A stretch of DNA of 64,000 nt, from the IMG/VR virus record IMGVR_UViG_3300021127_000004, positions 1 to 64,000 of that record; one strand, written 5' to 3'. The translations under genes and the position numbers were made by a program. The notes beneath the pieces were generated by a model. The model was not told where the DNA came from. It saw only the letters and a list, made by a program, of their open reading frames with translations, and searched no databases. This document shows positions 15,243-23,365 of the stretch, in pieces (position 1 is the first letter of the stretch; the number at the start of each line of letters is the position of its first letter). The DNA is from a virus.

Positions 15243-15542
15243 TTACTTTTTTAAATCTTCATACCTTAACCCATTGTGATAAGAACGGTAATTTATATCG
15301 TCAAAAAATCCATTCATATCATGTTCTACTCCATCCTCTTGCCATCTTAATATTAATCCCACTTCGCACTCATTATCTATATCGTAGCGTATATCGTCAA
15401 GATTGAAGAAATACTGGCAACAAAAAGAAGCAATCCCCCCAATATCATCTCCTACCCATCCATCGAAATCTAAAACTTGCTTTCTAATGAATTTATTTAA
15501 GTATGCTATTGCTACTGATTCGTAGCGTTGTTTAAGTGTCAT
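15243..15542 (-). CDS. hypothetical Bacteroidota phage protein
   Basis: WVGDDIGG...DIRYDID pattern. Confidence 0.65.
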   Translation of the reverse strand: MTLKQRYESVAIAYLNKFIRKQVLDFDGWVGDDIGGIASFCCQYFFNLDDIRYDIDNECEVGLILRWQEDGVEHDMNGFFDDINYRSYHNGLRYEDLKK

Positions 15543-16063
15543 AACCTAGGTTTTACTATATACAATACCAACGCAATCACTATCGCTGCTAATAATAGCC
15601 AGAAATATAAGCACCATTCATTGCCTCTACTATGTTCTTTTGAAACTTGTAGTTGTTGAGTAGTGATTATTCCGTTTAATGTTGCTATCTGCTTGTTTAA
15701 ATTCTCTATTTGCGATTTGCAAAGGGATAGTTGTTGGTTGTCGATAATGGTGTCACGGTCGTGTATGTGCGTTGTATTTGTGTGGGTTATTGTAGTGGTA
15801 TCGTGTATGTAATTGCCTACTGTATCATGACAAGTAGCAATAGAGGTATCGTGCAAATAGGTTGTATCGCTCGAATGCGATATCACCTTATTATCGCAAG
15901 GGTGTAAGTTAGTGTAAACTTGCCCCACCGTATCAAATAGCGGTTCTTTAGTTAGCACTTTCTGTAACGCTGTACGGTCGGACATACAACCCGTTAAATG
16001 CCACATTATCAGTCCAAATAAAATGATAATTCCAATGTAACTATAACCTTTATCTGCTTTCAT
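15539..16063 (-). CDS. unimolecular spanin (u-spanin)
   Basis: N-terminal lipoprotein signal (LTG-C) plus C-terminal TM helix, between holins and endolysin. Confidence 0.75.
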   Translation of the reverse strand: MKADKGYSYIGIIILFGLIMWHLTGCMSDRTALQKVLTKEPLFDTVGQVYTNLHPCDNKVISHSSDTTYLHDTSIATCHDTVGNYIHDTTTITHTNTTHIHDRDTIIDNQQLSLCKSQIENLNKQIATLNGIITTQQLQVSKEHSRGNEWCLYFWLLLAAIVIALVLYIVKPRL

Positions 16064-16082
16064 TTTTTCTCTTTTTAAAAGT

Positions 16083-16114
16083 ACCCTCTATCGTTCTTGT
16101 GTTAGATAGAGGGC
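16083..16114 (-). terminator. hairpin, possible terminator/attenuator upstream of spanin
   Basis: CCCTCTATC/GATAGAGGG 9-bp stem followed on minus strand by TACTTTT. Confidence 0.5.
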
Positions 16115-20246: not shown

Positions 20247-21215
20247 TTATTGAAAAGTTACTGCTGTTGCTGAAAGATTACCAATTTGATTATTACTTAC
20301 TGTATAGTATCCATTATATGTTCCCCCACTTGCATTTGTAAAGGTAATTGAATTATTTAGACTAAATGCAGATGTAGATGGGAATCCATTTACGGTAACA
20401 CTTGTAACTGTACTCGTATTGACATAGAAAAGATACTTTGCGCTGCCTTGTTGTGGGATTGTGTACGAAAGTGAAGTTGCCCCCCCGCTATTATCTTGAT
20501 ATAAGGCTGCCAATATTTCTGCTTGGGTGGGGGTTGTTGTTGCCGAAAATCCCAAATACCTTTTGTTATAAAAGGAAAATATAGTCGTTGCCGTAGCCGT
20601 TTTTGAATCAGTAGTAGTGACTACATTGCTATATGTAGTATTAGTGTTTCTTGTTACTGAAACTCCTTGTGTGCCTGTTACTGTACTACCTGCACTTGGT
20701 TGTGTAAATGTTTGCCCTGTACCTGCTACTACTATTGTAGCAATGGGATTTGTTGCTCCCTGTGTTGATGTAGCCGATAATCTCCCCGCCCCCCAATTTA
20801 AAGTGTAAGACAATGCAGCCCCACTAGCAACGATTTCCTGTGAAAATCCCCCTGTCAAAGTAGCAGTAGGGTTTTGTGTTTGTATCTTAACATACCCCAA
20901 CAAGGTATCATTAAGTGCTGTATGGGTTACAAATAGGCTACTATCTACGGTTGATGAGTTTCGTTTCCATCCGAAACCATTCCAAAACCATTTTGCTGTA
21001 TCCACCCCTGCATTTGCAAAAATTATTTCTGTACCATAATAACGGGCTTTCATATTTGTATCCGTCCTTACTGCGGGGATATAGCCACTATCTGATTTTA
21101 AAAAAGCGTATTTTATCCAACTTGTAGAATTGGTTACGGGATTACCTTGTGGGAGTGATTGCGAAAATCCCCCTACCAAAAACAAACTTAATAATATAGT
21201 TAATAGTATCTTCAT
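20247..21215 (-). CDS. Thr-rich beta structural protein with signal peptide
   Basis: Signal ending GFS-Q; Ig-like T/S-rich body. Confidence 0.7.
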   Translation of the reverse strand: MKILLTILLSLFLVGGFSQSLPQGNPVTNSTSWIKYAFLKSDSGYIPAVRTDTNMKARYYGTEIIFANAGVDTAKWFWNGFGWKRNSSTVDSSLFVTHTALNDTLLGYVKIQTQNPTATLTGGFSQEIVASGAALSYTLNWGAGRLSATSTQGATNPIATIVVAGTGQTFTQPSAGSTVTGTQGVSVTRNTNTTYSNVVTTTDSKTATATTIFSFYNKRYLGFSATTTPTQAEILAALYQDNSGGATSLSYTIPQQGSAKYLFYVNTSTVTSVTVNGFPSTSAFSLNNSITFTNASGGTYNGYYTVSNNQIGNLSATAVTFQ

Positions 21216-21253
21216 TTATTTAATTGTTATTTATTAAGGGTAAACGCGGATTT

Positions 21254-23365
21254 CTATTGATAAACACGTAAGTAAATATTTGAAAATGTCAATAACCCAT
21301 CCGTTAAAACACCGCTTGAATTATATGTATAAAAAGTGAAAATATTTTTATATATTATACCTGATTGCGTTGTAGAAAAAGTACCATTAGTTATTTTATT
21401 GTCGGAGAATGATATATCTGTATTATTCCCACAATATTGGAAGTGAATATTTGTTTTTGTAGATATAGTGCAAGTGTAAGTTCCTGTAGATATATAGTCA
21501 AAATGAACTGAATTAACACTAAATGTATCTATATCATCTACAAATACCTTTTGAATTGTAGGGGCTGTTGTTCCGCTTTGATATAACCTAGCTCTAAATT
21601 CATAATATCCTTTTGAGGGGATATTCGCTTGTACATAATTCTTTACTGCATTAACACTAGGATATAGTATATTGCTTGCGCTATCTGATGGATTTATTGA
21701 TACCGCTAAGTTATTTACGTCTTGGGGGATTAATCCTTGATTTTGCACTGAATATAACCATTCGCCGCTACCTACATATTGTAATCTAACTTGTATGCCC
21801 GAATCTACTGTAATATTATTTGTATAGCTTCCACTAGATGCTGTTGCGTAAAAATAAGTCCCTGTATTAGACCTTAAATTAAAATTGTTATTCAAACTAT
21901 AAGAACCTGTTATATTGTATATGTAATCTGTTTCACCTATTTTTGGGTTAGGATTAGTAAATAGTGAATACCCACTATTTGTAGGGTTTACAAAAGTATA
22001 TTTAGAAGTTGTAGTTATTGTTCCACTTAGGGTTATTACTGTGTCAGTATAAGAAACACTATTTGCTTTTACAAATCTAGTGATAGCTTGTACACTAGGG
22101 TACTTCGTAGTAGAAGCACTATCAGATGTTGCATTGTTAGATAAATTACTTAACGCTTGTGCATATCTGCCTACTGATTGAACTGTTGGGTATTTTGTTG
22201 TGCTGCTACTATCGCTTGCTACATTTGTTGATTTATTAGCAATATTTTCGGGTACATACCCTAAGCCAACATTAAGAATATCCCAATTAGTAGATGTTTG
22301 CCCGGGGCTATTAGTCAATGCCCTTACACTAGACCCTACTACAACCGATGTCCCGCCTAAAGTACCTGCTACTTTTATATACCATAAATCTCCCTTTTGT
22401 ATAGCCCCTGCTGTGCCACTACCCCCCGTTGAAGGGAAAACGTTGCCACTAGCATCGTAACTACCTCTGTCATTAAGAAGTCCTACTACTAGACCTGCGG
22501 CATAGGTTCTTGTGGCTTGTTGTGTAGGGTATAAAGTAGAACTATTTGCAGCCATAGTCCCATCGTTAGAAAGGTTTGATGTAACTTGATAGCCACTAAG
22601 GTTTGGGGCGTGGTTGGTTACATAAGACTTTACTGCGTTTTGTGTAGGTAGAGAATACAATGGGGAACTAGAAAGGGATGTATCATTTGAAAATGCGTTT
22701 ACACCATACCCCCCTAGATTAATAAAAGAACTAGCTTGTAAGGACAATGCTTCTATACTAGAAAAGTTATTATCTCCCGTAAACACATTGTTTTTAGCTA
22801 AATAAGGGATTCTTGTAGTGTCAATAGAACCACCTCCTCCACCTTGATGATTAGTTACATACGATTTTACTGCTTTTTGTGTGGGCAATATTGCATTTGA
22901 ATTACTTGTCATTGCGGTATCGGTAGATATTGATGATATTAATTGACCGCTAGTAAACCCCAAAAAACCATTTATTGTCAATGTATTATAATGCCCGTCT
23001 ATTGATAGGGTAGTTCCTGCATCATTATTATTAATATCTCCTATTGTAGTAATATCTCCATTTATTGATAACCCACTTGCATCGTTGTTGTTACTTACGT
23101 TTATATTAGGGAAAGTATTATTGCCTGTAAAATTATTATTCTTAGCTAAATAAGGTATTTTAGTACTATCAATAAGTTTTGAATTATTTATCTTGTTGTA
23201 GATAATGTTTTCAAACATCCTACCTACTCTTACGGCGGTGTTAGCCCCTGCCCTTGTTTCATTTTTTATTGTATCTGCTTGTGTAATTAATTGGGCATCT
23301 GTTAATTGGGATTTCCCCTCAAAGTAAACAAGCCCCAACAAAACTAATAAAATAACTTTCTTCAT
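21254..23365 (-). CDS. tail fibre-like protein with signal peptide and internal repeats
   Basis: IKNET..ANTA.RVG N-terminal motif, six (L/Y)P(T/S)x.A/S.. repeats, G.YDAS...GD...VAGT..W module; signal ending GKS-Q. Confidence 0.78.
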   Translation of the reverse strand: MKKVILLVLLGLVYFEGKSQLTDAQLITQADTIKNETRAGANTAVRVGRMFENIIYNKINNSKLIDSTKIPYLAKNNNFTGNNTFPNINVSNNNDASGLSINGDITTIGDINNNDAGTTLSIDGHYNTLTINGFLGFTSGQLISSISTDTAMTSNSNAILPTQKAVKSYVTNHQGGGGGSIDTTRIPYLAKNNVFTGDNNFSSIEALSLQASSFINLGGYGVNAFSNDTSLSSSPLYSLPTQNAVKSYVTNHAPNLSGYQVTSNLSNDGTMAANSSTLYPTQQATRTYAAGLVVGLLNDRGSYDASGNVFPSTGGSGTAGAIQKGDLWYIKVAGTLGGTSVVVGSSVRALTNSPGQTSTNWDILNVGLGYVPENIANKSTNVASDSSSTTKYPTVQSVGRYAQALSNLSNNATSDSASTTKYPSVQAITRFVKANSVSYTDTVITLSGTITTTSKYTFVNPTNSGYSLFTNPNPKIGETDYIYNITGSYSLNNNFNLRSNTGTYFYATASSGSYTNNITVDSGIQVRLQYVGSGEWLYSVQNQGLIPQDVNNLAVSINPSDSASNILYPSVNAVKNYVQANIPSKGYYEFRARLYQSGTTAPTIQKVFVDDIDTFSVNSVHFDYISTGTYTCTISTKTNIHFQYCGNNTDISFSDNKITNGTFSTTQSGIIYKNIFTFYTYNSSGVLTDGLLTFSNIYLRVYQ

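Follow-up and report, generated by a model that had tools for sequence, protein, structure and literature searches.

Bacteroidota possess a general O-glycosylation system whose substrates carry Sec or lipoprotein signals and D-(S/T)-(hydrophobic) sites that are over-represented relative to amino acid composition. According to a review of this system, the motif is sufficient for glycosylation of non-cytoplasmic proteins and is generally almost fully glycosylated in them, engineered motifs become glycosylated too and the system works across species (PMC12871550). The Asp is required and Glu is not used, and L, I, V, T, A, S or M is preferred at position +2 (2025, PMC12871550), while the O-oligosaccharyltransferase is still unidentified in the field. 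The substrates described are all cellular and the review mentions no phages (PMC12871550). Here, we describe candidate substrates in a virus. The record IMGVR_UViG_3300021127_000004 is a 78.7-kb single contig of an uncultured phage, and its first 64 kb, the stretch of 64,000 nucleotides analysed here and called the window, encode five consecutive fibre-type proteins and a spanin-like lysis protein that all start with predicted secretion signals. Since these signals come together with about three times the number of glycosylation motifs (sequons) expected by chance, most of these exported proteins are probably sugar-coated outside the cytoplasm. Unlike the cellular substrates, they are encoded by a lytic-type phage and known from sequence, and they carry sequons about twice as densely as the exported proteins sampled from a single Bacteroidota genome. 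The literature yielded no paper describing such probable sugar coating for a tailed phage, and none on sequon-rich or O-glycosylated phage proteins in Bacteroidota.

The one cultured precedent checked for signal-bearing virion proteins of a tailed Bacteroidota phage is Cellulophaga phage phi18:3 (KC821620, Pachyviridae). Its gp085-087 (L191, 2892-8584) are three consecutive large proteins with classic signals and Gln (Q) at +1, encoded directly upstream of the lysis genes and annotated in the record as structural from tandem mass spectrometry (MS/MS) of virions, although co-purification in such a sample is no proof of virion attachment. In contrast to the window proteins they are sequon-poor, and they have no sequence similarity to them; for a virion location of the window proteins they offer only an analogy. 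Prophage proteins of Porphyromonas gingivalis also have signals that expose an N-terminal Gln, which was read as an adaptation to Bacteroidota secretion, but these are function-unknown genes interpreted as host-envelope modifiers, and the paper contains neither a word that starts with 'glycosyl' nor a link to fibres (Matrishin et al., 2023, PMC10367356). The MAT fibres of Bdellovibrio bacteriovorus are tail-fibre-like trimers, some with an S74 domain, and each starts with a signal peptide (Caulton et al., 2024, PMC10769870). The fibre fold can therefore mature after Sec export, although these are cellular genes of a predatory proteobacterium, without sequon-directed glycosylation. Lastly, glycans on structural proteins of tailed phages are a feature of glycosylated mycobacteriophages, and a glycosyltransferase cassette is encoded here too. 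Freeman et al., in Cell Host & Microbe in 2023, reportedly found glycosylated mycobacteriophage virions in which phage enzymes modify capsid and tail-tube proteins in the cytoplasm. The route proposed here would differ from this, as it would combine Sec export with the periplasmic sequon-directed system of the host. Phage glycosyltransferases and capsid glycosylation are mentioned elsewhere as well (PMC11256854).

Sequon excess in the signal-bearing proteins

The five exported genes follow the structural block on the minus strand and encode proteins of 703, 322, 818, 253 and 118 amino acids (aa; positions 23365 down to 16660). Together with the spanin-like protein they were analysed as a set of six, using a strict sequon, D[ST][AILVMT], and a loose one, D[ST], and 5000 composition-preserving shuffles that were either global or local in blocks of 20 or 40 residues. 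The set holds 39 loose sites where 21.5-22.9 were expected (z 4.0-4.4) and 26 strict sites where 8.8-9.7 were expected (z 5.6-6.3). The strict count was reached by 0 of the 5000 shuffles, whether global or in local blocks. Enrichment of the strict sequon is thus 2.8x, with 1.09 sites per 100 aa, and the 26 sites occur in five of the six proteins, the 253-aa protein having none. When all 20 residues were compared at position X of X[ST][AILVMT], D alone stood out in the exported set (z 5.9), followed by P with 2.3, and E was observed 0 times where 2 were expected.

This excess is restricted to the signal-bearing proteins. The signal-less proteins of the phage (n=44) contain 41 strict sites against 46.5 expected. 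Asp precedes Ser or Thr in 39 of 92 instances in the exported proteins versus 116 of 1008 elsewhere (Fisher p 2e-12), and the +2 residue is A, I, L, V, M or T in 26 of these 39 sites versus 41 of the 116 (p 8e-4). The coding hexamer occurs 39 times in frame and only 5 and 9 times out of frame. The excess is therefore a protein-level feature, and a DNA-level motif was rejected by this frame check.

An initial annotation of this locus had drawn attention to the motif by hand counts of Asp before Ser or Thr, which proved exact in all cases. For the 322-, 118-, 818- and 703-aa proteins and the spanin-like protein, they are 6 of 7, 3 of 5, 13 of 30, 11 of 31 and 6 of 11, respectively. Its strict counts, nine in the 818-aa protein versus three in a signal-less 864-aa protein, were exact as well; the 253-aa protein, in which 0 of 8 Asp precede Ser or Thr, had been left out. 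It had also cautioned that Ser- and Thr-rich composition raises the background. The Ser/Thr-rich signal-less proteins of the phage show no excess (11 strict sites against 12.4 expected). The 864-aa protein of the structural region (24981..27575, minus strand), which is Ser/Thr-rich, lacks a signal and serves as internal control, has 9 of 36 Asp in D-S/T and is not enriched. The excess survives composition correction in the exported set only, which confirms that it is real and not an artefact of composition.

The 818-aa protein (17790..20246, minus strand; predicted signal ...SLNSFG|Q) belongs to a tail-fibre family with members of both kinds. Its central domain is common to hundreds of phage fibres, some of which carry PF07484 or the S74 chaperone domain, PF13884. 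The 120 best homologues were divided into 27 with a signal and 89 without, and 4 ambiguous ones were left out. Homologues with a signal contain 217 strict sequons against 69 expected (3.1x), whereas those without contain 142 against 217 expected (0.65x), so the comparison of homologues with and without leaders suggested in the initial annotation separates the two groups. The central domain that both groups share contains two sequons of the window fibre (DTA, residue 478; DTT, residue 678). Among signal-bearing homologues, 16 of 24 retain the first and 22 of 31 the second, while among those without a signal Asp is found at these columns in 1 of 70 and 0 of 79, respectively. Sequon Asp is also more conserved than other Asp (0.61 versus 0.40; one-sided p 0.03). 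The same division appears in related viral contigs, where among 290 non-redundant open reading frames (ORFs) the signal-bearing ones hold 83 strict sequons against 27.3 expected and the others 226 against 225.1. An AlphaFold2 (AF2) model of this fibre from a 10-sequence alignment was unusable, with a predicted local distance difference test score (pLDDT) of 34.7. The fibre motif G-S-V-T-G-I-L-K-A-D-G-S-G-N-V-S-A-A-T-A-G was also encountered in giant signal-bearing proteins (1500-2900 aa) on Bacteroidota contigs from metagenome-assembled genomes (MAGs; L062, L070, L071, L074 and L078). Phage fibres and surface proteins of the host may thus have exchanged domains.

The 322-aa protein (20247..21215, minus strand; predicted signal ...LVGGFS|Q) consists of the signal, a loose N-terminal region (approximately residues 20-110) with five D-S/T sites, and two beta-sandwich domains. 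Its AF2 model has a mean pLDDT of 85.6 and matches, in BFVD, the folds of proteins named tail fibre in gut and crAss-like phages (E down to 6e-9) and of a protein of Tenacibaculum phage PTm5; a fold search against PDB gave no match at E 0.001 or better. Among 150 family representatives with a mutual identity below 50%, 132 have a signal, and 130 of those 132 have Q at +1. Several of the 18 remaining representatives (e.g. P0274, P0311 and P0372) resemble proteins with truncated or mis-started leaders. The family contains 363 strict sequons against 158 expected (2.3x), with conserved columns at 42, 52 and 72 that all fall within the loose N-terminal region. At column 52, Asp is present in 75% and followed by Ser or Thr in 71%. 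In the C-terminal beta-sandwich domains, by contrast, hardly any Asp belongs to a sequon.

Two small proteins are enriched as well. The 118-aa protein (16660..17016, minus strand; predicted signal MKKLLLGLLVLGSLSVMA|Q) has its three sites all of the strict type, against 0.5 expected, and its orthologues (119-126 aa), which come after the big fibre in related contigs, are modestly enriched. The spanin-like protein (15539..16063, minus strand; 174 aa) has five strict sites against 0.9-1.2 expected, and its D-S/T sites lie mostly within a repeated H-D-T motif. Its lipoprotein signal (LTG|C, residues 23-26), C-terminal hydrophobic stretch read as a membrane helix, and position two genes upstream of the endolysin are those of a unimolecular spanin of the T1 gp11 type. 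Since no Pfam, PHROG or NCBIfam profile matched it, the protein was placed in this group by architecture only. Sequon-rich small lysis-cassette proteins were also observed in two cultured Bacteroidota phages. These are the exported lysis protein gp27 of crAss001 (L169, 25093-25695; 4 strict sites against 0.4 expected) and gp094 of phi18:3 (L191, 10901-11182; 3 against 0.3), a small exported or membrane-anchored protein. The fibres of crAss001 are without signal and show little enrichment.

The two remaining members of the set are the 703-aa fibre (21254..23365, minus strand; predicted signal ...YFEGKS|Q; seven strict sites) and the 253-aa LamG/concanavalin-like lectin-fold protein (17028..17789, minus strand; predicted signal ...GVANA|Q; PF13385, E 4e-20), which matches PHROG families named virion structural protein. 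The 703-aa fibre shares an N-terminal adaptor and PTQxAV repeats with signal-less fibres, and its mature end, LTDAQL...NETRAGANTAVRVG, is equivalent to the very start of those fibres (alignment A4). The adaptor motif lies at residue 16-17 in 56 signal-less metagenome proteins and at residues 32-40 in signal-bearing ones, and this offset indicates that a leader was grafted onto a conventional fibre end. The leaders of the signal-bearing carriers of this adaptor are mutually unrelated. A scan of viral contigs with P0149, for the context of the signal-less relatives, gave no match. Homology or a fold shared with known fibres or receptor-binding proteins was thus found for the 818-, 703- and 322-aa proteins.

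Within the three large proteins the sites are unevenly placed. In their proximal parts 29 of 56 Asp are in D-S/T, versus 1 of 12 in the distal parts (p 0.009), a comparison that is exploratory as the boundaries were picked post hoc. The distal parts (17790-18119, 20247-20885 and 21254-21505) are almost free of D-S/T, and the last 110 residues of the 818-aa protein entirely so. Such a distribution would fit bare receptor-binding tips.

Predicted signals, host and neighbouring genes

Signals were called by a heuristic of our own and by reading the N-termini by eye. The five N-termini have one or two basic residues, a hydrophobic core and, where cleavage is predicted, Gln directly after a small residue (FG|Q, FS|Q, KS|Q, NA|Q and MA|Q). 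Gln at +1 is known as the Q-rule of Bacteroidetes (Bochtler, 2018, PMC5837995), and Q19 of the 818-aa protein is invariant in both homologue alignments (A1 and A2). In silico, the six proteins thus divide into five Q-site leaders of the Sec type (signal peptidase I) and one lipobox (signal peptidase II). Cargo of the type IX secretion system was considered and rejected, since no Pfam or NCBIfam model of its C-terminal sorting domain matched any of the six. Three of the five genes with Q-site leaders have an in-frame start-type codon no more than two codons away from this site (chance p ~0.06): ATG at codon 17 of the 118-aa gene (16966-16968), ATG at codon 19 of the 253-aa gene (17733-17735) and GTG at codon 20 of the 818-aa gene (20187-20189). 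The 322- and 703-aa genes are without such a codon near the cleavage site. A leaderless cytoplasmic isoform could be produced from these internal codons.

The host phylum is likely Bacteroidota, because Q at +1 is invariant and because 18 of 19 genome matches of the fibre domain are in this phylum. The matches come from a degenerate-pattern scan with alignment A2 of the 818-aa fibre over one genome per prokaryote species, and include Sediminibacterium, Chitinophagaceae, Pedobacter, Aquirufa, Hymenobacter, Mucilaginibacter and others. The sole match outside the phylum is a 6-kb contig of a Comamonas MAG, and a scan of genome contigs with a single protein query gave no match. TAnnTTTG, a promoter motif of Bacteroidota, shows no enrichment (103 occurrences against 100 expected) and is therefore of no help in assigning the host. 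Related viral and metagenome contigs bear IMG/JGI lake-sample names (e.g. TBL_comb48_EPIDRAFT), from which their habitat is read as freshwater lakes; the hosts of the phage itself are thus probably Bacteroidota of fresh water. Searches for cultured relatives by megablast and tblastn with the region and with the portal, 818-, 703- and 322-aa proteins against 50,697 phage records returned nothing useful. Membership of the crAss-like phages (Crassvirales) was rejected on BLASTP, without recourse to more sensitive profile methods: the window proteins gave zero matches to crAss001 gp19-gp47 at E 1e-3, and portal and terminase have only weak PHROG matches.

The structural block extends on the minus strand from about 58.8 kb down to about 23.4 kb and includes the large terminase and the portal (PHROG profile). 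Beyond the 118-aa gene there are two small membrane proteins, the spanin-like gene, a 99-aa gene and then the endolysin (14774..15238, minus strand; Phage_lysozyme PF00959, E 2e-33), a marker of the lysis cassette that lies directly downstream of the exported genes. A sugar-tailoring cassette starts at the other end of the window (63436..64000, minus strand) and extends past it to genome position 66268. Its members have no signals and comprise a GT25-like protein, a 525-aa GT11 protein (fucosyltransferase family) and a rhamnosyl-O-methyltransferase/CmcI-like protein (PF01755, PF01531 and PF04989, the last one weak). A related 62.7-kb contig has a 98% identical GT11 protein but fibres of only 71-75% identity. 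A link of the cassette to the O-glycan is possible, and it could rewrite the host O-glycan, lipopolysaccharide or capsule.

Some further features were observed. A GroEL-like (558 aa) and GroES-like (99 aa) pair, identified by reading of the N-terminal sequence only, lies upstream of the structural genes (60386-62371). The contig starts with a 27-base unit (CGATACAGAATGTTTGGGACAATGCTA) in at least two head-to-tail copies (1-60). In the early region, a 99-aa protein (5980-6279) has a lipoprotein-type signal (…VAIG|C) and D-S/T in 1 of its 5 Asp.

Competing explanations

The best explanation, which we consider reasonably likely, is that export exposes the phage proteins to host glycosylation, with an outcome that would be heterogeneous across the six proteins. 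That export gives a phage access to host glycosylation was also the proposal of the initial annotation, in which stability, camouflage or control of adsorption were named as putative benefits, and it gains from the excess after composition correction, from the confinement of this excess to signal-bearing proteins, from its absence in signal-less homologues of the same fold and from the conserved columns. Neither a loss of enrichment after composition correction nor an equal density in signal-less homologues, the computational outcomes that were to speak against that proposal, was seen for the 818-, 322- and 118-aa proteins or the spanin-like protein. The conservation of the sequon excess argues that glycosylation is selected. 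The proposal is weakened where it extends to the 703-aa fibre, whose enrichment is weak and whose count is in part repeat-derived, to the LamG protein and its orthologues, which lack sequons, and to phage appendages in general, given the sequon-poor virion proteins of phi18:3.

Several points therefore have to be set against this explanation. Firstly, export, cleavage and glycans are predictions from the protein sequences, with signals called by our heuristic and by eye and not by SignalP, and with a host that is inferred and whose glycosylation machinery is presumed. Secondly, the 703-aa family is enriched 1.4x only and other signal-bearing carriers of its N-terminal domain stand at 1.07x. 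Five of the 11 D-S/T sites of the window fibre lie within an intrinsic repeat, D[ST]...YP[ST]xQxAV, which has D-S/T in signal-less homologues as well (58 of 109 repeats). Thirdly, the LamG protein has no sequon among its 8 Asp, and unlike their neighbours two LamG orthologues (L002, 2724-3506; L011, 6901-7686) have 0 of 6 Asp each in such sites. Fourthly, phi18:3 gp085-087 contain 3 strict sequons against 9.9 expected and 15 D-S/T against 26, a depletion that may reflect selection against glycosylation in that lineage. Enrichment is thus not universal among exported phage appendages. Since these virion proteins, like the other sequon-poor cases, bear signals, export and sequon loading are separable and loading is lineage-specific. 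Lastly, homologues are phylogenetically related, and this shared ancestry inflates the family z-scores, which overstate independence; effect sizes and the column pattern are stronger evidence than these scores.

For comparison with cellular proteins, a 355-kb sample of Mucilaginibacter rivuli was used, in which signal-bearing ORFs are enriched 1.43x (0.44 strict sites per 100 aa) and others 1.07x. It replaced a baseline of signal-bearing ORFs beside the bacterial homologues in MAG contigs, which gave 0.74x, a value that also counts against the favoured explanation but comes from a small and atypical sample.

The strongest alternative accepts export and probable glycosylation and disputes the destination only. 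It is possible, though rather unlikely in our view, that the proteins are not virion parts but are made late in infection to act unattached in the periplasm or at the cell surface. They could, for instance, be paralogues of fibres that hide the receptor from superinfecting phages or keep progeny off debris, much like the Llp lipoprotein of T5. Particles of tailed phages are put together in the cytoplasm, from which exported proteins would be missing, and no paper describing Sec-routed tail fibres was found. Signal-bearing bacterial surface proteins (1000-2900 aa) share the fibre motif, and Q-rule proteins of P. gingivalis phage were read as envelope modifiers (Matrishin et al., 2023, PMC10367356). 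On the other hand, the exported genes are the only fibre-like ones recognised between the structural block and the lysis cassette. The signal is grafted precisely onto the N-terminal adaptor domain with which signal-less fibres start, and phi18:3 gp085-087, with such signals, were detected by mass spectrometry in virion preparations.

A more elaborate version of glycosylation by the host is doubtful. It holds that some tailed Bacteroidota phages build their host-recognition appendages in two compartments: the fibres would pass through Sec, acquire an N-terminal pyroglutamate and receive host O-glycans at selected sites while their tips stay bare, and would join the cytoplasmic particles only at the holin lesion, with the GT11/GT25/methyltransferase cassette rewriting the outer glycan into a phage-specified coat. 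If true, such fibres would parallel, in bacteria, the glycoproteins that enveloped viruses of eukaryotes carry.

It is improbable that the sites are inherited baggage, that is, neutral remnants in fibre genes built from host surface-protein genes that were already rich in sequons. Giant signal-bearing proteins with the conserved fibre motif do occur in Bacteroidota MAGs, and the fibre genes are mosaic. However, those bacterial homologues and their neighbours stand at the 0.74x given above, and the sampled exported proteome of one Bacteroidota genome at 1.43x versus 2.8x here. Sequons 478 and 678 lie in a domain shared with signal-less phage fibres, in which Asp is almost absent at these columns, and sequon columns persist across homologues of 30-50% identity.

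We find it very improbable that D-S/T is a structural motif of fibre folds, such as an Asx or ST turn that starts a repeat, unrelated to glycosylation. The repeat of the 703-aa family, with its D-S/T in signal-less homologues and its five window sites, speaks for this reading, but signal-less homologues of the 818-aa protein are depleted and Ser/Thr-rich signal-less structural proteins of the phage show nothing. The +2 preference of the known sequon is found in exported proteins only, and the spanin, which is no fibre, and the 118-aa protein are enriched too. Weakest of all is the idea that the hydrophobic N-termini are not working signals, or that an internal-start isoform is made, so that the proteins stay cytoplasmic with unused sequons: the start-type codons near three cleavage sites are in its favour, but chance would give their number with p of about 0.06 and the 322- and 703-aa genes have none, very diverse homologues keep Q at +1 with few or no exceptions, and a motif excess confined to these proteins would be left unexplained.

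Proposed route and its consequences

Under the favoured explanation, the Sec system of the Bacteroidota host would translocate the five fibre-type late proteins and the spanin, and signal peptidase I would cut the five just before Gln, in line with the Q-rule. The general O-glycosylation system of the host would then add glycans at D-(S/T)-x sites in the periplasm, as export into a host with such a system would lead to glycosylation at accessible sites. These would be mainly on shafts and linkers and not on distal tips. Selection would have multiplied and kept sites on the 818-, 322- and 118-aa proteins and the spanin, and the most likely pay-off would be solubility, folding and protease resistance of large beta-rich appendages outside the cell. 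The glycosylated proteins might either join virions or act as free periplasmic or surface factors. Phage lysis follows an established three-step model, and in its terms virion joining could, for instance, fall in the interval between the holin lesion, through which cytoplasm and periplasm mix, and disruption of the outer membrane.

The idea is directly testable by a natural contrast, since proteins of one fibre fold either have a signal and many sequons or lack both. If it is true, viral proteins would be added to the substrates of the only sequon-directed O-glycosylation system known in bacteria, and the rule that every part of a tailed phage matures in the cytoplasm would be called into question. 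It would also bear on the expression of fibres for phage engineering in Bacteroidota, gut species included. For the phages themselves, glycan-coated receptor-binding proteins would affect stability, host range, adsorption, and recognition by grazers or immune systems.

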